A DNA stretch of 64,000 bases from Candidatus Levyibacteriota bacterium (GTDB lineage: Bacteria > Patescibacteriota > Microgenomatia > Levybacterales > UBA12049). Both the position numbers and the translations under genes were made by a program. The DNA is taken from assembly GCA_043823085.1 (NCBI GenBank), contig JBDRBE010000001.1:47267-111266 (forward strand). The letters are read 5' to 3'. Each line of letters begins with the position of its first letter. The stretch's first letter is position 1. The notes beneath the pieces are model-generated. The model saw only the letters and a list, made by a program, of their open reading frames with translations, made no database searches and was not told the origin of the DNA. Positions 618 to 61,402 of this stretch are shown here, in pieces.

Positions 618-2594
618 CTAATTCGCAAGCTTTATAACTTTACTAACAATATGTTTTGCGCTGATTTGGGCATAAGCCAAGAGCTCTTCTGTGCTGCCCG
701 AGCGGGATATTTTAGGAACTGCCATTTTTAAAACTTTTGCACTACTTTCGGCCATTGCCTCTAAAACAAAATCACCTAAGCCTCCATGCTCGTAATGATC
801 TTCAACAGTGATAATTATTGGTTTTTTTGTTTCATTGGCACATTGTTTTATAGTTTTCTTATCAATTGGTTTAATACTATAACAATCTACAACTCTAATA
901 AAAATTCCTTTCTTTTTAAGCTCTTCATAAGCTTTTAACGCTTCAAAAACAGTGATGCCGCAACAAACAACAGTAAGAGTATCTTTTTTCGAACTTTTGA
1001 TAATTTTTGATCCGCCAATTAAAAATTTTTCGGTTGAATTATAAATTACAGATGTTTTAGGACGAAGTGTTCGAAAATAAGAAATACCAATATGTGAAAC
1101 CAAAAGCGGTAAAATTTTAGCAGTTGAAACTGCATCGCTTGGCTGAAAAATTAAAGACCCGGGAATAGTGCCAAACATGGCAATATCTTCAAGACCCATT
1201 TGAGACGGTCCGTCTTCGCCAATTGAAACTCCGGCATGCGAACCGCAAAACTTAATGTTAGCCTGCGAGATTCCCGCCATTCTAATTTGATCAAAAGCGC
1301 GGGTTAAAAAAGCGGCAAAAGTCGAAACAAAAGGAATTTTTTTCATTCTCGATAAGCCAACTGCAACTCCTACCATATTCTGCTCGGCAATAAAACATTC
1401 TATAAAACGCTCCGGATGATTTTTTTTGAAGATTTCCGAATATGTTGAATTTTTTGTGTCGCCGTCCAAGGCATAAATAAAAGGATTATTATTCCCAAGC
1501 TCTGATAATACGTGTCCATAAACCTCACGTGTTGCAATCTTATCACCAATTTTGTATGAAAGGCTTAAGCCGCGGGGAGGCACAAAATTTTCGCTGTTCG
1601 CATCTTGTCGAGCGCCGTTGACTTGATTAACAACTTGAGATCCTTCGCGAGACAACTGCGGAACAAGAAAATTTTCGTGCCGACCTAAGCGGCTTTTCCT
1701 ATTTAAATCAAACCTTAAACTATCGTCCGTTTTACGTAATTCCAAAAGCGCTTTCTCCAACTCATCTTTTTTAAGCGGTTTTCCATGCCATCCTTCTTTT
1801 CCTTCCAAAAATGAAACTCCTTTTCCTTTTTTAGTTTTAGCAATAATAACAAATGGTTTTTTATTCTTATTATTAGTTGCAAGTTTAAAAGCCTTAATAA
1901 TTTCTTCAAAATTATGTCCGTCAATTGCCAGTGTTTCAAAACCAAAAGAAGAAAATCTATTAAGATACTCGTTAACCTTATGATTAAACATTGTTTCCTG
2001 ACTTTGTCCCAAACCATTAACATCCACAATTGCGATTAAATTATCTAAATGGTAATAAGAAGAAAAATTTGCCGCCTCCCAAATATTTCCTTCCGCCGTC
2101 TCCCCATCTCCCATTAGAACATAAACTTTTGGTAAACTCTTAGTTCTTGATTCTGAATTTTTAATTCCCGCGCGTTGCGCATACGCTATTCCTGCGCCTA
2201 CTGATAAACCTTGTCCCAGTGACCCAGTTGCTGCTTCTGTGAAGGGGAAACGCGGAGTTGGATGACCTTCAAGCCGACTTTCAAATTTCCTAAGTGTTTT
2301 TAATTCTTCTAAAGGCAATCCTCCGCTTAAAGCAAAAAGTGTATAAAGGAGCGGCGCCGCATGACCTTTTGATAGAACAAACCTGTCATTGTTTAAATTA
2401 TGAGGATTTTTTAGATCGTAAGTAAAAAATTTATCAAACATAACAGTTGCGATATCTGCAGATGATAAACATGAGGTTGGATGCCCGGATCCTGCTTCAC
2501 TTGTTGCAATTAAAGACCATTTACGAATAAGCGCTGCTTTCTTTTCAAGATCCGAAGAGTCTACCATGATGCTATTGTAATGGTAATCGTTCAT
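618..2594 (-). CDS. tkt: transketolase
   Basis: 658 aa. TPP-binding signature SGHPTSCLSSADI, GDGETAEGNIWEA, and the central Pyr domain (ATREVYG...GDTKNS). Full-length single-chain transketolase architecture. Confidence 0.9.
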   Translation of the reverse strand: MNDYHYNSIMVDSSDLEKKAALIRKWSLIATSEAGSGHPTSCLSSADIATVMFDKFFTYDLKNPHNLNNDRFVLSKGHAAPLLYTLFALSGGLPLEELKTLRKFESRLEGHPTPRFPFTEAATGSLGQGLSVGAGIAYAQRAGIKNSESRTKSLPKVYVLMGDGETAEGNIWEAANFSSYYHLDNLIAIVDVNGLGQSQETMFNHKVNEYLNRFSSFGFETLAIDGHNFEEIIKAFKLATNNKNKKPFVIIAKTKKGKGVSFLEGKEGWHGKPLKKDELEKALLELRKTDDSLRFDLNRKSRLGRHENFLVPQLSREGSQVVNQVNGARQDANSENFVPPRGLSLSYKIGDKIATREVYGHVLSELGNNNPFIYALDGDTKNSTYSEIFKKNHPERFIECFIAEQNMVGVAVGLSRMKKIPFVSTFAAFLTRAFDQIRMAGISQANIKFCGSHAGVSIGEDGPSQMGLEDIAMFGTIPGSLIFQPSDAVSTAKILPLLVSHIGISYFRTLRPKTSVIYNSTEKFLIGGSKIIKSSKKDTLTVVCCGITVFEALKAYEELKKKGIFIRVVDCYSIKPIDKKTIKQCANETKKPIIITVEDHYEHGGLGDFVLEAMAESSAKVLKMAVPKISRSGSTEELLAYAQISAKHIVSKVIKLAN

Positions 2595-4127: not shown

Positions 4128-4449
4128 ATTTTTTCAAATATTTCCATGCGATAATGACAATTGTGCTGATAAAAAGAGGACATAAGGTGTTAAAAATTAT
4201 GAATTCCTCAAAAGGCAATCCGGTAGAAGGACCCCCAAAAAACCATACACCAAGAGTCGGTGAAGAATCATAACGCCAAAGTCCAGTTCTTACAGAAAGA
4301 AGATCCCAGGGGGCACCAAAAAGAAAAGTCGACATGACAGTAAAAAGAAATATCTTTTTATATTGCAGGAATGTTTTCCAAAAAAAAATCCAAAATACGA
4401 TAAGAGGAATCAAAAGAAATACAACAAGCAATGTTAAATAGGTATACAT
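4117..4449 (-). CDS. lycopene cyclase domain-like membrane protein
   Basis: 110 aa, three TM helices. GLPFEEFIIF resembles the conserved hPhEEhhF motif of CrtYc/CrtYd lycopene-cyclase domains. Confidence 0.4.
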   Translation of the reverse strand: MYTYLTLLVVFLLIPLIVFWIFFWKTFLQYKKIFLFTVMSTFLFGAPWDLLSVRTGLWRYDSSPTLGVWFFGGPSTGLPFEEFIIFNTLCPLFISTIVIIAWKYLKKYVW

Positions 4450-5719: not shown

Positions 5720-6023
5720 TGTCTTTATGTAATTCTTTAGTTAAATCCGCCGATGCATTTTTAATTTTATCTTCGATATTTTCTATTTTCCCATTTAAAA
5801 AATCCCATATTTTTTCGTGATTGTCAACTGAAAGATGCTCGAGAAATATTTTTTTATCTTCCTTTGAAAGTTCAGATAAAATCGCATCCAAAATTACATG
5901 GTATAAATTTGAATCGATAAGCGATATCAGATGCTCTCTTTCATCTTTTGATAAATTAATATTGTTTAGCTTAACGATTAATGAATCGATTTCAATAATA
6001 TGAGTGTAAAACTTTTTTTTCAT
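5697..6023 (-). CDS. hypothetical helical protein
   Basis: 108-aa ORF overlapping the downstream gene by 23 nt. No motif recognised. Confidence 0.35.
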   Translation of the reverse strand: MKKKFYTHIIEIDSLIVKLNNINLSKDEREHLISLIDSNLYHVILDAILSELSKEDKKIFLEHLSVDNHEKIWDFLNGKIENIEDKIKNASADLTKELHKDIETLPHS

Positions 6024-8984: not shown

Positions 8985-9569
8985 TTATCTTAATCCTATT
9001 GCAGTTTGAAAAGTTTTACTTTCAGGCCCGGATTTTTTGATTGTTTTACTAGTTAAAGTAAAAGCTACTTTAATGGTGCTCTTCCCTTCTGTTTGCCCAA
9101 GTTGCATGAAGCTTAAATTTGATACACTTGTATCATTGCCATTTAATTGATCTGCTCCTAACATCAGATTACCATTGTTTAAGCTATAAACATAATCATC
9201 GCTATTTATAGTAATTGTTAAAGTTTGCGACTCGACTCCATAAGAAAGAGGAACCTTAACATCACTTGCTCTCCCAATGTCATAATTTAATCTTGAAAAA
9301 AGATATTTGCCGTCTTCCTGAACGCCGGACGTTGCTTCTGTATCAAGCTGTACATCTAAAATTGCCGTAAAAAGCTGAACCAAAACCAAAAGAAGCATCG
9401 AAAAAATACCAAGATAAATTAGAAGCTCAATAAGAGTAAACCCCGCACCTACGACTTTACGGCTCACCCCGCTGACTCGCCTCGCTTCGCGGACATTGAT
9501 TAACTCTTGTTTTAACGAACAGATATTGTGGTGCGGGGTAAATCCTTTTATTTTTTTGATTTTTAACAT
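8985..9569 (-). CDS. prepilin/pseudopilin with a 34-codon in-frame insertion in the leader (see mobile_element 9440-9539)
   Basis: ...KVVGAG|FTLIELLIYLGIFSMLLLVLVQLF is the class III signal. The leader is about 40 aa instead of the usual 6-25. Confidence 0.7.
   Translation of the reverse strand: MLKIKKIKGFTPHHNICSLKQELINVREARRVSGVSRKVVGAGFTLIELLIYLGIFSMLLLVLVQLFTAILDVQLDTEATSGVQEDGKYLFSRLNYDIGRASDVKVPLSYGVESQTLTITINSDDYVYSLNNGNLMLGADQLNGNDTSVSNLSFMQLGQTEGKSTIKVAFTLTSKTIKKSGPESKTFQTAIGLR
9440..9539. mobile_element. MITE-like insertion (about 100 bp) with perfect 10-bp terminal inverted repeats ACCCCGCACC / GGTGCGGGGT
   Basis: 9440-9449 accccgcacc is the exact reverse complement of 9530-9539 ggtgcggggt. 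The interior is GC-rich (ctcgcctcgcttcgcgg) in an AT-rich gene. Coding-strand direct repeats gGaTTTAC / gGgTTTAC flank it. Removing the 102 nt between them restores KG|FTLIELL. Confidence 0.45.
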
Positions 9570-21976: not shown

Positions 21977-24256
21977 TTATGCAGTTTCTACTCCAAATAA
22001 ATCAATTTTTCCGCCGCAATATTTAATAATAATATTACACGCTTCTTGTAAGACTTTTTCTACCATAAAAGGTGCAATATCATAAACTCCATCAACATTT
22101 ATATATAAATTTTTTGTTTTTACCTCTACTGCAGTTCTTTTTGCATCGCGATAGTTAAAATCCATATTATATCCGCCAATTTTATCAAAATATGCAATTT
22201 CTGTTTCTCTATATACTGTTGGTTTTGCGTCTCCTAAAAGTAAAATTTCTTCATCGTTTTTTGCAAATCTTAAAACGGTTGGAAATTCTATTTTATCGAG
22301 ATCAAATGCGCCAACCGAAATATGATGCTTCATTACAATTAAATTGTATGCATCTACGCAAGTATTGATATTATATAAACCCTTATTTAATGCAACTCTT
22401 CGCAAAAGCGCCTCGGGGCTTGGACGCCTTGAATGCCAATCAACTTTCATTTCTTTATATAATCTTCTGTAACTTATAATCTCCGGATATTGACCAAGTT
22501 TCTCTGTTGTTAATCCATTAAGCGAAGAAAGCAATTCTTCTTTTTCTTTTTCCAAACCCTCATTTGATTTTTCAATACTGACGCCTTTTATAATTGCTAT
22601 ACCAATTGAAATCGAAGGAAACCTATTTTTTAGCTCTTTACTAATTGAAAAGACCTTTAGATTATTAAATATTTTCAACGAATCTTTTTTCTCATCACTA
22701 CTTAAATGATATATATCATTTAAGTAAATATCCTTGAATCTTTTTTGGACGAATTTTTTATCCAGAGATAAAATTAACCAGCCAGCTTTAGGACCGTGAT
22801 CTTTACCGATTAATGAAAGATAAATTGCAGAGAATGCTTCTTTTGAAGAAACTTCTAATTCCTTTGCTAATTCATAAAGATTTTTTTGAAAATCTTGGGC
22901 GGTCCATTTTTTATCAAGTTCCAATGAAACTTTTTCCAAAAACTTTTTTTGTTTATCGGATAAACTCTTTGCAGTTTTGGGTATAGTTTTACTGACAGAA
23001 AATTTTTCCGATTCCGGAGCAAATTTTTCAACCCAAATTCTTGCATATTTTGCCCATTCTTGGAGTCCTTTTTTTTTAATCACGTCTTCCATATTCGGCA
23101 TCTGTATCCATTGGGCAAGAACTGAAAAACGAATTTTTGGCGGTTTTTTAAACTTGTCTATTTGGGATAATTCAAAAGTCCTTGCCAAATCATTATCGCC
23201 CTTATTAAAATATGCCTCTGCAGCTTTTTGATATTCATCTAATAAATTTGGAATTGCTAATGTACCAACCGGATTGAATTCTATCGCTTTTTTATAATCA
23301 GTTTTCGCAAATAAAAATCTTGCAATTTCTGGCGGTAAAAGATCAGTTAATTCTCTAGCTTTTAAACCCAAACCTTTTGAAGTACCCATTTTTTTACCGC
23401 CAATAAGAAAAAATTCATAAGGAAGATTAAAAGGATTTGGATAATTAAAAATTTCTTTGCATAATTCTTTTGCAATATCTCTTGAACCGCCGGCCGATGA
23501 ATGATCTTTTCCTGCACCCTCAATTGTCACTCCCAATACCTTCCAATGCGCCGGCCAATCAACTTTCCAAGGTAATTTTCCATTCCCGTCAAACGGACTA
23601 ATTTTCCCCGAGTATCCGCATCCTTTTGCCCATTTAACCATTTCCGGTTCACAAATATAGGAAACTTCCCTGCCGTCCCATTTGTAAACGCGAGTTGTGC
23701 CAATTTTTCCGCAATGCTGGCAAATGACTTGCAAAGGAAGCCATCCTTTTTCTTTTTTCTTGCTTCCCGAAACTTTTTGATAAATATCTTGAATTTTATC
23801 TGCATTATCTAAAGCAATTCTTACAACCTCATTGAATTTACCTTGATGATACATATCCCACGATGATAAAAATTGCGCTGAAACTCCTAAATCTCTTAAA
23901 ACTTTTTGGAAATCTTTGGCAAAATAATCGGCAAAACTTGAATAGCCTTTTTCGGGAGATGGAGCACTGCGAAGAGGAATACCAAGATATTTCTCGAAAC
24001 TTGATAAGTCTTGCGGCAATCCATCAATAGGATCAAAATCATTAAAAATGTATGTCCATTTAACCTCTTTTCCGGCATCTTTAATAGACCTAAATAATAT
24101 GTCATGAATCAGAGGCCCTCGCAACGAACCGACTGTTGCATAACCCGATGGAGTAAACATATCATCTACCCAATAATGTTTATGATTTCCAGATGAAATT
24201 ATTTCTTTGGTAACTTTATCCGCCCAAAACATATACTCGAATTGATTATAATACAT
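21977..24256 (-). CDS. lysS: class I lysyl-tRNA synthetase fused to a C-terminal B3/4 (PheT-like) tRNA-binding domain
   Basis: N-terminus WADKV...TPSGYATVGSLRG (degenerate HIGH), a Cys-rich insertion with the LPWKVDWPAHW motif, and a KMSKS-like GKKMGTSKG. The C-terminal roughly 230 aa carry VDAYNLIVMKHHISVGAFDLDKI, matching the B3/4 signature VDxTNYVMLExGQPLHAFDLDKI. Confidence 0.8.
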   Translation of the reverse strand: MYYNQFEYMFWADKVTKEIISSGNHKHYWVDDMFTPSGYATVGSLRGPLIHDILFRSIKDAGKEVKWTYIFNDFDPIDGLPQDLSSFEKYLGIPLRSAPSPEKGYSSFADYFAKDFQKVLRDLGVSAQFLSSWDMYHQGKFNEVVRIALDNADKIQDIYQKVSGSKKKEKGWLPLQVICQHCGKIGTTRVYKWDGREVSYICEPEMVKWAKGCGYSGKISPFDGNGKLPWKVDWPAHWKVLGVTIEGAGKDHSSAGGSRDIAKELCKEIFNYPNPFNLPYEFFLIGGKKMGTSKGLGLKARELTDLLPPEIARFLFAKTDYKKAIEFNPVGTLAIPNLLDEYQKAAEAYFNKGDNDLARTFELSQIDKFKKPPKIRFSVLAQWIQMPNMEDVIKKKGLQEWAKYARIWVEKFAPESEKFSVSKTIPKTAKSLSDKQKKFLEKVSLELDKKWTAQDFQKNLYELAKELEVSSKEAFSAIYLSLIGKDHGPKAGWLILSLDKKFVQKRFKDIYLNDIYHLSSDEKKDSLKIFNNLKVFSISKELKNRFPSISIGIAIIKGVSIEKSNEGLEKEKEELLSSLNGLTTEKLGQYPEIISYRRLYKEMKVDWHSRRPSPEALLRRVALNKGLYNINTCVDAYNLIVMKHHISVGAFDLDKIEFPTVLRFAKNDEEILLLGDAKPTVYRETEIAYFDKIGGYNMDFNYRDAKRTAVEVKTKNLYINVDGVYDIAPFMVEKVLQEACNIIIKYCGGKIDLFGVETA

Positions 24257-50053: not shown

Positions 50054-50815
50054 TTATGCAGTCAAAATGATTGGTCCTTCTTTGGTAACTGCAACCGTGT
50101 GCTCAAAGACGGCTGATAAACTACCATCTTTAGTAACAATTGTCCAGTTATCTCTGCCCGAAAGCACAACCTCGCTTTTTCCCATATTGTAAATTACCTC
50201 AATGGCAATAGTCATCCCCTCTCTTAAAGCAGGAGTTTTTTCAATTTGAGTACCATCTAAAAATCCGGGAATTCCCGGCTTTTCATGCAGATTTTTTCCT
50301 ACACCATGCCCAATAAGCCTTCTAACCACAGAATATCCATTTCCCTCAACAATCTCCTGAATGGTCTTTGAAATGTGCCCGATTCTATTTCCGACTACAG
50401 CCATTTTTATCGCTTCTTCAAGCGCTTTTTCACCCGTTTTTAAGAATTTATCAACCTTGTCATTTTTATTGAGTGGCAAAACCCTTTTGGTTTTACAAGC
50501 ATCTGTATTAAATCCTTTGTAAAAGACTCCGCAATCAATTCCCGCAACATCGTCTTCCTTGAACCTGTAATTGGTAGGTATACCATGAACAACCGCATCA
50601 TTGGTTGAGGTGCAAAGTGTGTAATTATATCCTGGTACTTTTTTAAATCCCGGCTCGCCACCCCTTTTTATAATAAAATCTTGCGCCAACTTATCAAGTT
50701 CTAATTCCGAAACCCCCACTTTAAGATGATTTAAAACTTCTGTTATAACCCCTGACAATATTTTCCCTCCCTGTGCCATTTTTTCCAAATCTTGCTTTGA
50801 TTTAATGGTGATCAT
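50054..50815 (-). CDS. map: methionine aminopeptidase type I
   Basis: 253 aa. Metal-ligand pattern (D...D...H...E...E) of MetAP-1. Confidence 0.9.
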   Translation of the reverse strand: MITIKSKQDLEKMAQGGKILSGVITEVLNHLKVGVSELELDKLAQDFIIKRGGEPGFKKVPGYNYTLCTSTNDAVVHGIPTNYRFKEDDVAGIDCGVFYKGFNTDACKTKRVLPLNKNDKVDKFLKTGEKALEEAIKMAVVGNRIGHISKTIQEIVEGNGYSVVRRLIGHGVGKNLHEKPGIPGFLDGTQIEKTPALREGMTIAIEVIYNMGKSEVVLSGRDNWTIVTKDGSLSAVFEHTVAVTKEGPIILTA

Positions 50816-51378
50816 TTTGCTTTTATCCCTATTCTCTCAAGAAGAGCGTCCACACCGGAGTATAAATCACTGATTGAATTACTATTGTTATCAATCGAAT
50901 AGTCGGCTATGGCTATTGGTCCGGCTTTGTTAAGATTTTCAATCTCTTTAATATCCCGAAGATAACATTTTTCCAAAGGAACCGGACGGACTTTTCTTTG
51001 TGATAGTCTTTGATAACGTTTTTGCGCTTCGACAAAAAGATGGATTAAGATAAGATTATCCAATTTTTCTTTTAAGAATTTATATTCCTCCCAGGAATAA
51101 AGACCGTCGAGAACTAAATAATCGCTTGCTCTCAATGCTTCTTCAATTTGTGACCATGATTTAACAGCATATGCATTCATTCCAAAATCTTTTCTAATTT
51201 TCTCTCTAAAATTCTGTTCGTTCTCTGGAGTTAAAGGAAGATTTGCACTTTCTAATCCATCGTCTGTAATATTACCGAATCTTACAAAAGGGATTCCTTT
51301 TTTTTCTAAATAAACTGTTGCTTCACTTTTACCTGACCCTGGCATTCCAACAAATGCCAAAACTATTTTTTTATTCAC
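50812..51378 (-). CDS. P-loop nucleotide kinase-like protein (adenylate/dephospho-CoA-kinase fold) inserted between adk and map
   Basis: 188 aa. P-loop GMPGSGKSE and NMP-kinase-like length. Not the canonical adk, which is adjacent upstream. Confidence 0.45.
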   Translation of the reverse strand: MNKKIVLAFVGMPGSGKSEATVYLEKKGIPFVRFGNITDDGLESANLPLTPENEQNFREKIRKDFGMNAYAVKSWSQIEEALRASDYLVLDGLYSWEEYKFLKEKLDNLILIHLFVEAQKRYQRLSQRKVRPVPLEKCYLRDIKEIENLNKAGPIAIADYSIDNNSNSISDLYSGVDALLERIGIKAK

Positions 51379-51919
51379 TTTCTTTCTTAATTTTTTCCAT
51401 TATCTCTTTATGAATTTCTCCAACCGATTTTTCCCCATCAACCTCAATTAAAATTCTTTTTTTACGGTAAAAGTCCAAAACCGGCTCTGTAAATTTATGA
51501 AATGAATGGATTCTTTTTCGAATAGCCGCCAAGGTTTCATCGTCGCGCGATTCGCCGTTTCGATAAGAAAGTCTCCATAACGCTTCTTTATCGGAAACGT
51601 TTAAATAAACGACGTCGTTAACATGATTTTCGAAAGCTTTTGCCTGACCTAGCGTTCTTGGAAAACCATCAAGAATATAACCTTTTTGATATTCATCGCG
51701 CTTAAGATAAGTTGAAACGATTAAAAGTGTTTTTCTGTCAGGAATAAGATACCCGGCATTCATAACTTCTTTAATGTAACGACCAAGTTTAGAATGTTCC
51801 TTGGTCAAACTTCTGAAGATGTGGCCGGTTGAAAGATAAGGAACATTAAACTTTTCGGACAATAAATTCCCTTGCGTTGATTTTCCCGAACCTTGAATAC
51901 CAATTAAAATAATCTTCAT
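51371..51919 (-). CDS. adk: adenylate kinase (short form, no zinc lid)
   Basis: [32 protein letters not shown] ... GFPRTLGQ. Confidence 0.85.
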
Positions 51920-54176: not shown

Positions 54177-54559
54177 AATTCCAAACCTCCTTCTCTTGCG
54201 CCTTGTGCAAGAGATTTAATTCTACCATGATAAATATAACCTCCTCTGTCAAAAACAACTTTCTTAATTTTTTTCTCCAATGCTTTTTTTGCCAAAACCA
54301 TCCCCAGATTTTTAGCCTGAATTGATTTTTGTCCCCCTTGCCTGCCGGCAGGCCCGCCTGCCGAGCGGGCAGGCTGGTTTTTTTCTTCCAAGTGACTTTC
54401 TGTCATTCCTAATATTGTTTTTCCTTCTTCGTCATTAATTAACTGAACGTAAATGGCTTTATTTGACCTAAAAACAGAAAGCCTTGGCCTTTCTTTGGTC
54501 CCCCTGACTTTACTTCTTACTCTGGATTGTCTTTTTATTTTATTTTTGTTCTTATTCAT
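54173..54559 (-). CDS. rplR: 50S ribosomal protein L18 with a GC-rich in-frame insertion
   Basis: [18 protein letters not shown] ... [28 protein letters not shown]. It carries an extra [15 protein letters not shown] segment encoded by palindromic GC-rich DNA at 54338-54380. Confidence 0.9.
54338..54380. repeat. GC-rich palindromic in-frame insert within rplR (cctgccggcagg ... gcctgccgagcgggcaggc)
   Basis: 12-nt perfect palindrome cctgccggcagg (54341-54352), followed by the hairpin gcctgcc-gagcg-ggcaggc. It sits in an otherwise AT-rich gene. Confidence 0.6.
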
Positions 54560-54570
54560 ATACTATACGC

Positions 54571-55122
54571 TTACTTTGCTCCAACTGTTTTTGCAGCCTT
54601 ACCTGCTTTTCTCTTAATTTTTTCTCCAAAATAAGATATTCCTTTTGCTTTGTATGGATCCGGCGGACGTATCGCTCTAATTTTGGCAGCCATATCTCCA
54701 ACTATTGTCTTATCAATTCCCATCACCGTAATTACATTTTCCGTAACTGAAAATTTAATTCCATTTTTAGCTTCAACCTTTACAGGATGCGAAAATCCAA
54801 GTGATAATATAAGATCATCGCCTGTTAAACTGACTCTATATCCGACACCTGACAATTCCAATTTTTTTTCAAAACCCTGCGATACTCCTTTAACCATATT
54901 GGCAATTAAAGCCCTTGTTAATCCAAATAGTGCTTTTGAATCTTCGGAACTTTCTTTCTTTTGAGAAACAATTACCTTTTTATCAAGAACTTTTACCTCA
55001 ATTTGTTTTGGGAACGAGTAAGACAATGATCCTTTAGGACCACCAACTTCAACAGTTCCATCATTGATGGTAACTGTAACTCCCTCTTTTATTTCAACTG
55101 GTATTTTCCCTATTTTTGACAT
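54571..55122 (-). CDS. rplF: 50S ribosomal protein L6
   Basis: MSKIGKIPVEIKEGVTV ... two L6 repeats. Confidence 0.9.
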   Translation of the reverse strand: MSKIGKIPVEIKEGVTVTINDGTVEVGGPKGSLSYSFPKQIEVKVLDKKVIVSQKKESSEDSKALFGLTRALIANMVKGVSQGFEKKLELSGVGYRVSLTGDDLILSLGFSHPVKVEAKNGIKFSVTENVITVMGIDKTIVGDMAAKIRAIRPPDPYKAKGISYFGEKIKRKAGKAAKTVGAK

Positions 55123-55128
55123 AGATTT

Positions 55129-55518
55129 CTACCAAATTTTAAAAAGAATTTCTCCTCCAAGACCCTTTTTCCTTGCTTGATACCCTGCCATAATTCCCTG
55201 ATTTGTCGAAACAACTGAAATTCCCAAACCGCCCTGAATTTTTGTCAGGTTTTTTGCGCCAATATAAATTCTAAGAGAAGGTTTTGAAACAACCTCGCAA
55301 TCGGAAAAAACCGGTACTCTTTTTTCGTAGCGTATTTTTCCAACTAAAATTTTCTTACCATTTGTAGTCTCTTCCTTTAAATCCTCAAGATAATTTTCTT
55401 TAACCAAAACCTTAGCGATTTCCTTACCCATTTTTGAATAAGCAAATTCAACTTGTTTTCGTTTTGCCATACAAGCATTTTTTAGCCTAATAACCAAATC
55501 CGAAACTAAATAATTCAT
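55129..55518 (-). CDS. rpsH: 30S ribosomal protein S8
   Basis: DLVIRLKNACMAKRKQVEF ... GGEILFKIW. Confidence 0.9.
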   Translation of the reverse strand: MNYLVSDLVIRLKNACMAKRKQVEFAYSKMGKEIAKVLVKENYLEDLKEETTNGKKILVGKIRYEKRVPVFSDCEVVSKPSLRIYIGAKNLTKIQGGLGISVVSTNQGIMAGYQARKKGLGGEILFKIW

Positions 55519-55523
55519 ATTAT

Positions 55524-55709
55524 TTACCAGGTCGCTTTATAAACCCCCGGAAGTTCTCCTTTCATTGCTAATTCTCTAAAGCAGATACGACAAATGCCAA
55601 AACGTCTCATATAAGCTCTTGGTCTGCCACAAAGTTTACATCGATTCTTGTTTCTGACCGCGAATTTTTGTTTCTTTAAAAGATTAACAACGTTTGATTT
55701 TTTTGCCAT
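55524..55709 (-). CDS. rpsZ: 30S ribosomal protein S14, type Z (zinc-binding)
   Basis: 61 aa. [25 protein letters not shown]. Confidence 0.9.
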
Positions 55710-55735
55710 ATTTTTGATTTTTGATATTTAATTTT

Positions 55736-56308
55736 TTATTTTGCGAATGGCATGCCCAATATTTTCAAAAGTGCGCTGCCTTCCTCATTGTTTTTAGCCG
55801 TTGTGACAATAACCACTTCAAGTCCTTGTATTTTATCAACTTTCGAAGGATCAATTTCAGGGAAAACAGTATACTCATTAAAACCAAGTGAGTAATTACC
55901 GCGTCCGTCAAAACTCTTTTGGCTTACGCCATGAAAATCTCTAAGTCTTGGAAGCACAATATTTGTCAATTTTTCGAAAAAAGAATACATTCTTTTTCCC
56001 CTTATTGTTACTGTCAATCCAATCTCGTCTCCTTGTCTTAATTTAAAAGAAGAAATTGCCTTTTTTGCCTTTGTGACTTTTGGTTTTTGACCTGAAAGGG
56101 CAGCTAGAATTACAGACGCTTTCTCAACATTCTTTTTATCGGAGAGTGCATCTTTTACGCCCAAATTAAGCACAATTTTTGATAGCTTGGGTAGAGCCAT
56201 CAAATTTTTTGCACCAAGTTCTTCTTTTAATTTTGTCCGCCAGTCGGCGGATTCTGAATTAAATCTTGTTTGTAAAGCACTCATATTGTTTGTTTGCATT
56301 TCTTGCAA
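55736..56308 (-). CDS. rplE: 50S ribosomal protein L5
   Basis: NLMALPKLSKIVLNLGV ... ITIVTTAK. Confidence 0.9.
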   Translation of the reverse strand: MQEMQTNNMSALQTRFNSESADWRTKLKEELGAKNLMALPKLSKIVLNLGVKDALSDKKNVEKASVILAALSGQKPKVTKAKKAISSFKLRQGDEIGLTVTIRGKRMYSFFEKLTNIVLPRLRDFHGVSQKSFDGRGNYSLGFNEYTVFPEIDPSKVDKIQGLEVVIVTTAKNNEEGSALLKILGMPFAK

Positions 56309-56619
56309 ATTCTTAATTTTTTGTCTTTTTCAATTGAAAATCCGACCCTTGTTGCCAAATGACATTTCGGACAAACCAATACAACGTTTGTAATAGACAT
56401 TGGTTTGGTTATGGTTATAATTTCCGATTTTTGATTCTGTGCCCTTGCTTTTAAATGCCTTTTGTACTGATTAATTCCGGCAATCAAAATAAGACCTTTT
56501 TTAGAAAAAACTTTTTCTATTTTTCCGCTTTTTCCTTTATCTTTTCCCAAAACTACTTTGACTTCATCTCCTTTTCGCAACTTATAACTTATAACTTGTA
56601 ATTTATAACTTTTTTTCAT
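56281..56619 (-). CDS. rplX: 50S ribosomal protein L24 with C-terminal C4 zinc-ribbon extension
   Basis: [25 protein letters not shown] (KOW). The C-terminus has CPKC...CKKC. The N-terminus contains the TTATAAC tandem-like repeat ([12 protein letters not shown]). Confidence 0.85.
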
Positions 56620-56990
56620 ACTATCTCAACTGCCATGCTGGCAATTTTAGCAAATCCTTTATTTTTAATTTCTCTTGCGATTGGTCCAAAAATTCTTGTC
56701 CCTATAGGATTTTTATCTTTTGGATTATCTATTAAAACAGCCGCATTTTCAGAGAAACGAACATATGACCCATCCGGTCTTCTTTGTTCTTTTTTACATC
56801 TGACCAAGACTGTCTTAACAATTTCTCCATCCTTTACATTCCCTGCCGGATTAGCTTCTTTAACCACACAGTTCAAAATATCTCCTATATATCCAAATTT
56901 TCTTTTCGAACCGCCGAAGATATGAATTACCATGAGTAATTTCGCTCCGGAATTATCTGCAACTTTTAACATTGTTCTATGCTGAATCAT
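56616..56990 (-). CDS. rplN: 50S ribosomal protein L14
   Basis: [17 protein letters not shown]. Confidence 0.9.
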
Positions 56991-57295
56991 TTGGCCTCCT
57001 TCTTCTTAACCTGTTTTTTAACCTTAATTTCAGCTTTTACCGTAACTGGCGCCTTTGGCTCTTCGGTTTTAATAATTTTTGAAATTTTAAAGTGTTTTTC
57101 TTTAGAAATGGGCCTAATTTTGAAAAACTCCACAAAATCTCCTACTAAAACATTAAAACCTTGAGTATCAACTTTATAACTCTTATTCTTTTTAGAAACC
57201 CTTTTATAGAGCTTATGAACAGTCTTTCGCGTAACCTGCACAACTGCTGTGTTATTCATTTTATTTGAAACAATAATTCCTTCAAATTTTTGCAT
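56987..57295 (-). CDS. rpsQ: 30S ribosomal protein S17
   Basis: [38 protein letters not shown]. Confidence 0.85.
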
Positions 57296-57299
57296 AATT

Positions 57300-57515
57300 T
57301 TATTTTTTTAAGCTAACCTCCAATTTTTTTTCTTCCAAAATAGTCAAGATTCTTGCGACTTCTTTTCTTTTTTCAAAGACAGAACGTAAATTCTTAAGTT
57401 TTTTTTGAAATTTATCCAGTTTTAATTGAAAAAGCTCGTTTTTTAATTCCAAAAATCTTGCTTTTAACTCCGGTATTGTTTTTGTATGTAATTCTTTTTT
57501 TGCTTTTGTTTTCAT
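57300..57515 (-). CDS. rpmC: 50S ribosomal protein L29
   Basis: 71 aa. ELHTKTIPELKARFLELKNELFQLKL. Confidence 0.85.
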   Translation of the reverse strand: MKTKAKKELHTKTIPELKARFLELKNELFQLKLDKFQKKLKNLRSVFEKRKEVARILTILEEKKLEVSLKK

Positions 57516-57523
57516 TTTATTTA

Positions 57524-57940
57524 TTAATCAAACATTTGCTTTTCTACAATTCTTGTTTTAACAGGCAATTTGTGAGACGCCAGGCGAAGAGCAGACATAG
57601 CAATATCACGAGTTATGCCTCCCATCTCAAACATCATCCTGCCGGGCTTTACAGATGCCACGTACTCATATACTTCTCCCTTACCGCTGCCCATTCTTGT
57701 TTCGGCCGGTTTCTTGGTAATTGGTTTATCAGGAAAAATCCGAATCCAAATCCGACCGCCTCTTTGGGTATAATGAGTAATTGCTCTTCGTGCCGCCTCG
57801 ATTTGCCGGCTGGTCACCCATCCCATTCCCAGTGAAATGAGTCCGAATTCTCCAAAGGAAATTTTTGTGCCGTTATGGGCATTTCCTCTCATCATTCCTC
57901 TTTGCTGTTTTCTAAATTTCGCTCTTTTTGGAACTAACAT
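57524..57940 (-). CDS. rplP: 50S ribosomal protein L16
   Basis: [15 protein letters not shown] ... RMGSGKG. Confidence 0.9.
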
Positions 57941-57942
57941 AA

Positions 57943-58594
57943 TTATTTCTCCTCCGGTCTATTTATCCAAACTTTTACTCCAATATAGCCTTTTTTAGTT
58001 AAAGCCGGAACACTGGCAAAACTAATATGCTCGCGGATCGTTGAAAGCGGAACCTTACCGATATGTAATTTTTCCCTGCGGCTGATTTCCGCTCCGGCTA
58101 TTCTCCCCGATAGTAAAATTCTTACTCCTTTTGCTCCTGAACTCATAACCCTTTCTCCGGCCGAAAACAGTGCACGTTTATAAGGCATTCTCTTAATCAA
58201 CTGCTCGGAAATGTTCTTTGCAACCAAGTATGCGTCGAGATTTGGTTCTTTAATTGGTTCAACTTTAATATCTAGTTTTGGCAAATTCTTTGTATTTTTT
58301 TTTAGTTTTATTTAAAATAGCAACAAGGAATTTTTTTAAATCATCAAGTCCTGTTCCGCCTCTGCCAATTACGATTCCAGGCCTTGAAACATAAATTATC
58401 AATTTTAAACTATTTATTGATCTTTCAATTTCTACCCTGGCAATGCCGGCAATTCTTAATTTTTCCATTAAAGCTTTTCGAAGAGTATAATCTTCAAAAA
58501 GAACATCTTTATATCTTTTACTGTCAAACCAACGGCTTTCCCAGTTATAAATTGTTCCAAGTCTTAAAACTTGCGGATTAACTTTTTGCCCCAC
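57943..58594 (-). CDS. rpsC: 30S ribosomal protein S3, interrupted by a frameshift at an A9 homopolymer (two ORFs: 58265-58594 N-part from a GTG start, 57943-58284 C-part)
   Basis: The N-part reads [13 protein letters not shown]...GIVIGRGG (KH domain) and ends 8 codons after the A9 run at 58295-58303. The C-part ([19 protein letters not shown]...[20 protein letters not shown]...YIGVKVWI) is in the +1 frame. Deleting one A joins them into a normal S3. Confidence 0.85.
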
Positions 58595-58595
58595 A

Positions 58596-58896
58596 GAACC
58601 TCCTTCCAGCCCGCCCCGCTTCGCTTGGCGAGGCCGGGGTCGGTAATAAACCAATGCTACAAATAAACAAATAATTTAATTTGCGGACAACCCGAAGCGG
58701 GTGACGCGAGGAAGTTTGGCGCGGGGAGGCGTAAAATTTTCGCAGTTCGCATTTCGAGCTTACAACTTTTGATGGAAATTTCAAAAGACTCCAGGGTTTT
58801 ATTCTGTTTCGAATTAAATCCAAACTGTTGCGAGTTGCGGAACAAGAAAACTTTTGCGCCGACCTAAGCGCCTTCTGCAACTTTTGACAGACACAA
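58596..58896. repeat. roughly 300-nt GC-rich mosaic insert between rpsC and rplV (hairpin 58610-58643; 20-mer shared with the rplC-rplD insert at 58692-58711; transketolase-homologous block 58716-58872)
   Basis: Normally rplV and rpsC abut. The sequence cccgaagcgggtgacgcgag is identical to 61265-61284. The 58721-58759 and 58823-58872 segments match transketolase 1572-1613 and 1651-1700 at roughly 85% identity, including identical runs of 15 and 13 nt. Confidence 0.6.
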
Positions 58897-59241
58897 TTAT
58901 TTCTTTTCATTTTTTTCCTCCAATACTATTCTTATATTACTTGATCTTTTTTTAAAAGGATGAACCCTGCCTCTGGTTGAGGGTTTAAACCTTTTAAGAG
59001 CCGGGCCGCCTGAAACATTAATACTTTTAATAATTAAATTCTCTTTTTGCAGCTTTGCATTATTAATTGCATTTGCCAAAGCGCTTTTTAAAGTTTTTAA
59101 AAGCGAAGTTGCCGCTCTTTTATTTGCCAGACTTAAAGCATTTATTGCTTGCTCAATTGACATATTGCGCACCATATCGGCAAGTAAACTCACCTTTCTT
59201 GGACTTATTTTAACTGATTTGCTTTCTGCTTTTATTTCCAT
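58897..59241 (-). CDS. rplV: 50S ribosomal protein L22
   Basis: KISPRKVSLLADMVRNMSIEQAINAL. Confidence 0.9.
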   Translation of the reverse strand: MEIKAESKSVKISPRKVSLLADMVRNMSIEQAINALSLANKRAATSLLKTLKSALANAINNAKLQKENLIIKSINVSGGPALKRFKPSTRGRVHPFKKRSSNIRIVLEEKNEKK

Positions 59242-60600: not shown

Positions 60601-61242
60601 TTATTTCTCCTTTAAAAAATAATCCTTGGCTTCCTCTAATGCCTCTTTGGCAAAAATAAGCACTTTATTATTTAAAATTTGATAAGTATTAATTGTATTT
60701 ACCAATATAAAGCTTGTATTTTCAATATTTCTTACAGCCCTCATAATATTTTCCGCGTCTTTTGGCAAAACCAGCATAATTTTTTTACCAGAAAGTTCCA
60801 AGTTTTTTAAAGTGTTTGCCATATTTTTTGTTTTTGGCTCCAGGGTTTTTAGCCCTTTTATAATTTTTATTTCTTGGTCTTTTAATTTTGCAGAAAGTGC
60901 CGAAAATAAAGCCGATCTTTTCATTTTTTTAGAGAGTTTTAGCGAATAATCTCTTGGTTTTGGTCCAAAAGCAAGTCCTCCCTTAACAAAAATCGGAGCT
61001 CGTATTGATCCATGTCTTGCCCGGCCTGTTCCTTTTTGCTTATATATTTTTCGACTTGATCCTTTGACCTCACTTCTGGTTTTGGTTGAAGCTGTTCCTG
61101 TTCTCTGATTTGCTAAATAAACTCTGACTGCTTGACTTATTAATACTTTATTTACTTTTACACCAAACATTTCTTTTGGTAATTCCATTGATTCAACAAC
61201 TTTTCCTTTTAAATCGTAAACGTCAACTTTTAAACTACCCAT
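60601..61242 (-). CDS. rplD: 50S ribosomal protein L4
   Basis: The true start is MGSLKVDVYDLKGK... at 61242. The listed ORF extends to 61431 only because the GC-rich insert has no in-frame stop. Confidence 0.85.
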   Translation of the reverse strand: MGSLKVDVYDLKGKVVESMELPKEMFGVKVNKVLISQAVRVYLANQRTGTASTKTRSEVKGSSRKIYKQKGTGRARHGSIRAPIFVKGGLAFGPKPRDYSLKLSKKMKRSALFSALSAKLKDQEIKIIKGLKTLEPKTKNMANTLKNLELSGKKIMLVLPKDAENIMRAVRNIENTSFILVNTINTYQILNNKVLIFAKEALEEAKDYFLKEK

Positions 61243-61402
61243 CTTGCTTCTCAAATCGCGGGGAGCCCGAAGCGGGTGACGCGAGCCAGAGACCTTGCTG
61301 GCACGCAGTCCGCCAGTTGGCGGATTAGCCGTACGAGTACCAGCGAGATGGCGAGCGGCAGGACCCGCGAGGGCGACCTTTGATTTTTGATTTTTGATTT
61401 TT
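61243..61402. repeat. 160-nt GC-rich insert (about 65% GC) between rplC and rplD, with internal palindromes
   Basis: It contains cccgaagcgggtgacgcgag (61265-61284, identical to 58692-58711), the palindrome ccgccagttggcgg, inverted ends tcgcgggg...cccgcga, and then (GATTTTT)x3. Confidence 0.6.

Follow-up and report, generated by a model that had tools for sequence, protein, structure and literature searches.

A frameshift in rpsC of a Levybacteria assembly very probably reflects a homopolymer miscall or a non-representative variant

In the stretch of DNA analyzed here (64,000 nt from a contig of Candidatus Levyibacteriota; hereafter, the window), the gene of ribosomal protein S3, rpsC, is distributed between two reading frames that part at a run of nine adenines. 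The question raised by this locus is whether the gene is truly broken, whether its two frames are joined in the course of expression, or whether the assembled sequence misrepresents an intact gene. A preliminary description of the locus listed three explanations, i.e., a homopolymer sequencing or assembly error, rescue by transcriptional slippage, and programmed ribosomal frameshifting, and preferred none of them. Our analysis favors the first one: the frameshift is very probably a length miscall of the homopolymer or a non-representative variant in the window assembly.

The reading frames of rpsC and the A9 tract

The gene is an ordinary bacterial uS3 gene (rpsC) of the S10/spc operon in a Levybacteria/Microgenomates (Patescibacteria, CPR) genome. 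The order rplV (L22), rpsC, rplP (L16) is that of the S10 operon, and the genes for L16, L29, S17, L14, L24, L5, S14, S8, L6, and L18 are located 3' of rpsC. The coordinates of the main features are collected in Table 1.

Table 1. Coordinates of rpsC, its neighbours, and GC-rich islands in the window
Feature	Coordinates	Strand	Remarks
rpsC Shine-Dalgarno sequence GGAAGGAGG	58599..58607	-	4 nt 5' of the start codon; read directly
rpsC 0 frame, as in the window	58265..58594	-	GTG 58594..58592 to TAA 58267..58265; 109 aa; KH_2 domain
A9 homopolymer (plus strand: T9), site of the 1-nt length difference	58295..58303	-	A8 in the independent assembly
rpsC +1 frame, Ribosomal_S3_C	57943..58311	-	open from 58311; stop 57945..57943
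rplP (L16), neighbour 3' of rpsC	57524..57940	-	Pfam Ribosomal_L16
rplV (L22), neighbour 5' of rpsC	58897..59241	-	Pfam Ribosomal_L22
GC-rich island	54311-54400		within the L18 gene
GC-rich island	58578-58661		just 5' of the rpsC start/Shine-Dalgarno sequence
GC-rich island	61235-61387		between L3 and the L4 domain
GC-rich island	9433-9500		within an uncharacterised ORF

The general layout given in the preliminary description is borne out. The GTG start codon is preceded by the Shine-Dalgarno sequence as described, the product begins with MGQKVNPQ, the same N terminus as in homologues, and the A9 run is found where it had been placed, being read on the minus strand. The N-terminal ORF encodes the KH domain (Pfam KH_2, E-value 8e-12 for the fragment and 5.5e-12 for the repaired protein), and the C-terminal domain of S3 is encoded in the +1 frame (Ribosomal_S3_C, PF00189, E-value 1e-26, full profile 1–83). 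The 0 frame does end soon after the tract, but its out-of-frame extension had been counted as eight codons, whereas we find nine sense codons (YKEFAKTRY) before TAA. In the +1 frame, a TAA at 58314..58312 immediately precedes the opening of the frame, and the first start-like codon is TTG at 58284.

Deletion of one A, which had been said to yield a normal contiguous S3, indeed produces a 216-aa product in which both domains are present and which aligns colinearly with every relative; it spans homologues of 214–216 aa over 100% of their length, at identities of up to 80%. The addition of two adenines (A11) is an alternative way to repair the frame. A single continuous S3 ORF is absent from the window as assembled, with A9, and is present after the removal of one A and in an independently assembled contig described below. 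Apart from the extra A, rpsC has no other defect.

The window has a GC content of 35% and contains four A or T runs of 9 nt and 31 runs of 8 nt. An A9/T9 run as such is therefore not unusual here; the interruption of an essential gene is. The remaining A/T runs of at least 8 nt are situated outside genes or in uninterrupted frames consistent with intact genes, and no other run of this length in the window lies at a break between gene halves. Several candidate homopolymer-split pairs (44301/44836, 50812/51371, 3789/4117, and the junctions at 6020 and 56616) were considered and rejected, as their Pfam assignments and start contexts are consistent with separate genes. Gene pairs abutting at A/T runs turned out to be separate genes starting with MKK... 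or members of unrelated families (adenylate kinase and a P-loop kinase; S9, L13, L17). The window is not generally error-prone, and the extra A is an isolated event at one of its four longest homopolymers.

S3 in relatives and in an independent assembly

In a database comparison, the best 120 matches of the repaired S3 are 213–226 aa long, with query coverage of 98–100% and identity of at most 80%; all 120 are full length, and none has a shift at this site. The named homologues come from MAGs of Candidatus Levybacteria, Microgenomates, or Patescibacteria. The repaired 216-aa product shares with Levybacteria/Microgenomates uS3 proteins the succession of KH_2 and Ribosomal_S3_C, is up to 80% identical to annotated S3 proteins of Levybacteria, and its gene has the same position between rplV and rplP. 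The copy in the window differs from theirs in the extra A and in the length of the spacer separating it from rplV (302 nt, versus −17 to 104 nt in 28 relatives).

Relatives were further scanned with one genome per GTDB species (31 loci), the genome of the window itself being outside this set and the best hit being 75% identical. In all Patescibacteria relatives examined among these GTDB genomes (27/27), S3 is a single ORF of 212–244 aa. In these 27 relatives, the two S3 domains are connected by a variable, lysine-rich linker containing A runs of 5–7 nt. The comparison of tract lengths in relatives, proposed in the preliminary description, thus revealed runs shorter than the one in the window and a change of frame in 0/27 genomes, and nothing among them points to a conserved or recurring shift at the rpsC tract. 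The motif conserved in the closest S3 homologues begins four codons past the tract and can be read in the +1 frame only.

The decisive comparison is with an independent assembly of the same organism, found in the Logan assembly of run SRR27458547, where the first contig was identified through the exact L16 protein. This contig (SRR27458547_9635, 4114 nt; hereafter, L001) corresponds to positions 58638..54524 of the window, with no mismatches and one 1-nt gap in an alignment of 4115 nt. The gap falls in the rpsC tract, which in L001 reads AAAACT-AAAAAAAA-TACAAAG, that is, A8, and the S3 ORF of L001 runs uninterrupted down to the stop codon seen in the window. The same run yielded three further contigs, L002, L034, and L035, by way of L22, a tRNA-synthetase-like protein of 759 aa, and a protein of 652 aa; each of them matches the window at 100% identity. 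Over the four contigs, 20.6 kb in total, the ninth A of the rpsC tract is the sole difference from the window.

Nine other runs of at least 8 nt are equal in length between the two assemblies, including the T9 at 23069–23077, which sits within the intact gene of the 759-aa protein; of the four 9-mers in the window, the comparison covered this one and the rpsC tract, the two others being at 4380 and 20907. The agreement at 23069–23077 indicates that runs of nine are not shortened as a rule in the other assembly.

Among the collections searched, the organism was found in one independent sample only. Exact-product look-ups for five other proteins of the window returned no match on record, likely because the short Logan contigs break inside genes. 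The window may originate from the sample behind SRR27458547 or from a sister sample, and the read sources would then not be fully independent; a literature search found no papers mentioning this run. Nothing is on record for the exact products of A9-type fragments (the 109-aa N-terminal one starting at GTG and the 113-aa C-terminal one starting at TTG), and hence a second assembly with the shift is not known. JGI metagenome contigs, scanned for the tract and its flanking sequence with A8 to A11 allowed, gave 0 hits.

The homopolymer error proposed in the preliminary description is thus backed by A8 and an intact rpsC in an assembly that is otherwise identical across 20.6 kb. Under this explanation, the true tract would be A8 (codons AAA ACT AAA AAA AAT) and the gene would encode one 216-aa protein. 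The ninth A would have arisen as a length miscall during sequencing, assembly, or polishing, or would be at most a non-representative variant in the consensus, and a recoding mechanism would be unnecessary.

On the grounds of parsimony, we infer that it is the window, rather than the other assembly, that carries the error, because a chance error restoring the frame of an essential gene is far rarer than one breaking it. If A8 is true, one insertion miscall in the window accounts for everything. If A9 is true, one needs both a frameshifted essential single-copy gene and an independent frame-restoring deletion error in the other assembly, which is far less likely. A mixed population is conceivable, although an A9 allele of rpsC should be strongly deleterious. 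As a counterpoint, no other error is seen in the window across the 20.6 kb, and its assembly is not generally indel-prone; a single isolated error must therefore be assumed.

The case has the appearance of known homopolymer-length errors in MAGs: a single 1-nt difference at one of the longest homopolymers distinguishes two assemblies and breaks a universal single-copy gene. No feature of the rpsC case sets it apart from such errors.

Rescue, disruption, and recoding as alternatives

The A9 allele might be real, either fixed or present in a sizeable subpopulation, with RNA polymerase slippage or ribosome sliding on poly(A) yielding an in-frame fraction of the product; we consider this improbable. 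Such a rescue by slippage has been put forward for genes with frameshifts in Buchnera and Blochmannia (PMC3017870; review PMC5009743), and in AT-rich genomes of reduced size, transcriptional slippage can make intragenic A9 tracts tolerable (PMC3017870). The rpsC locus shares several features with these poly(A)/poly(T) frameshifts, i.e., a single-base indel in an A/T run of at least 9 nt (here, A9 at 58303..58295) within an otherwise intact important gene that shows no decay beyond this single base, and an AT-rich genome (35% GC) from a lineage with a reduced genome. Moreover, 9 nt belongs to the length class where slippage becomes appreciable (PMC3017870, PMC5574713), and Blochmannia tolerates frameshifts in the essential genes dnaX, dnaG, and pth (PMC3017870).

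The likeness ends at reproducibility. The endosymbiont shifts have been verified in finished genomes, and some of them are conserved between populations or species, whereas the shift in rpsC is absent from the otherwise identical genome, which has A8, and from all relatives (a single ORF in 27/27 genomes, and full-length proteins among the best 120 homologues). The conservation typical of maintained frameshifts is therefore lacking.

The direction of the shift is also unfavorable. The A9 frame can be restored only by a 1-nt deletion or a 2-nt insertion in RNA, both being less favored slippage products, while the common correction is +1 (PMC5574713). In genome-wide transcript data from E. coli and Buchnera, single-base insertions dominate slippage on A/T runs and in-run deletions are rare, and in Buchnera frame-restoring transcript errors were not detected (PMC5574713). 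For these two reasons, the absence of the shift elsewhere and the unusual product needed, the slippage rescue suggested in the preliminary description does not hold up well.

The expected yield is a further difficulty. About 30% of full-length or in-frame transcripts have been reported for frameshifted endosymbiont genes (PMC3017870), but S3 is needed stoichiometrically, one per ribosome, and even approximately 30% of in-frame transcripts would be costly. If rescue of this kind were nevertheless true, the correction of frameshifted genes by polymerase infidelity, proposed for insect endosymbionts, would also concern a core ribosomal protein and Patescibacteria with a free-living or episymbiotic way of life. 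Should reads support A9, rpsC would provide a first case of a CPR bacterium that tolerates a frameshift in the gene of a core ribosomal protein, with a bearing on recoding and genome reduction.

It is very unlikely that rpsC is truly disrupted, be it as a pseudogene of recent origin in a lineage that is dying or hitch-hiking, or as a functional split with the KH and C-terminal domains translated separately. Each half of S3 is a complete domain, and the TTG at 58284 could in principle serve as the start of the second half. Yet this TTG, the only candidate start, has no Shine-Dalgarno sequence and is positioned upstream of the stop codon of the first frame. Furthermore, S3 is essential and single-copy, a split S3 is found in no relative, and rpsC is intact in the identical genome.

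Programmed +1 ribosomal frameshifting of the prfB type, joining the two frames within 58311..58268, where their overlap of about 15 codons holds a run of lysine codons on which tRNA-Lys can re-pair, is scarcely credible: the site and the two-frame layout are conserved in 0/27 relatives and in none of the closest homologues, stimulating signals are absent (no SD-like, GGAGG-like element precedes the tract, and the 80 nt downstream of it have a fold no better than that of shuffled sequence, z = −1.0), the 0-frame stop is nine codons away from the tract and not at the shift site, and the unshifted rpsC of the identical genome argues strongly against this mechanism, which the preliminary description had also listed.

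With an A8 gene miscalled as A9 as the preferred reading, rpsC should be annotated as an intact gene that has an A8 tract and encodes 216 aa, and should not be labelled as a pseudogene, a split gene, or a case of recoding. Use of the repaired S3 sequence is advised for estimates of completeness from marker genes and for S3-based phylogenies.

The rplV–rpsC spacer, a repeated element, and other neighbours

The unusually long spacer between rplV and rpsC (58595–58896, minus strand) has a GC content of 47%, compared with 35% for the genome. No Rfam family was found in or around the spacer, its fold is not significant (z = −1.8), and a spurious 110-aa ORF that crosses it contains no Pfam domain.

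The spacer harbors an element of about 165 nt (58720–58883) in which two conserved blocks form an imperfect inverted repeat. Another copy was observed at 1571–1704, inside the transketolase gene, where it occupies residues 297–342 and keeps the reading frame; its blocks show identities of 83% (48 nt) and 91% (33 nt). The transketolase (618–2594, minus strand) belongs to the short type that resembles the human enzyme: among solved structures, human TKT matches best (E-value 4e-180), while bacterial transketolases match with E-values of about 1e-64 or weaker. The copy in this gene sits in the linker between Transketolase_N and Transket_pyr, and residues 288–328 of the query fall between aligned stretches, opposite just 14 residues of the human enzyme. 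Rickettsia palindromic elements (RPE) insert in frame within genes, and the repeated element seems to resemble them in its arrangement. A scan of JGI metagenomes for the repeat block gave 0 hits.

Short GC-rich islands (62–73% GC), some of them palindromic, are scattered over the window (Table 1). A 20-nt string, CTCGCGTCACCCGCTTCGGG, is common to the island between L3 and L4 and to the rplV–rpsC spacer. The Logan contigs L002 and L001 end, with an overlap of 29 nt, at 58610–58638 inside a GC-rich hairpin, which suggests an assembly-graph branch, the sequence being repeated or variable in the sample. The longest ORF of L4 (60601–61431, minus strand) comprises 276 aa, with the Pfam L4 domain starting from residue 82, and its first ~63 codons coincide with a GC-rich island. 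The true start of L4 may be an internal ATG (MGSLKVDVYDL...); L3 would then be followed by a spacer of about 160 nt.

Finally, secY is followed by two consecutive genes of P-loop kinases (50812–51378 and 51371–51919, minus strand). One encodes a clear adenylate kinase (182 aa) and the other an AAA_18 protein of 188 aa. The two genes overlap by 8 nt at an A7 run and appear to be separate genes, not one split gene.
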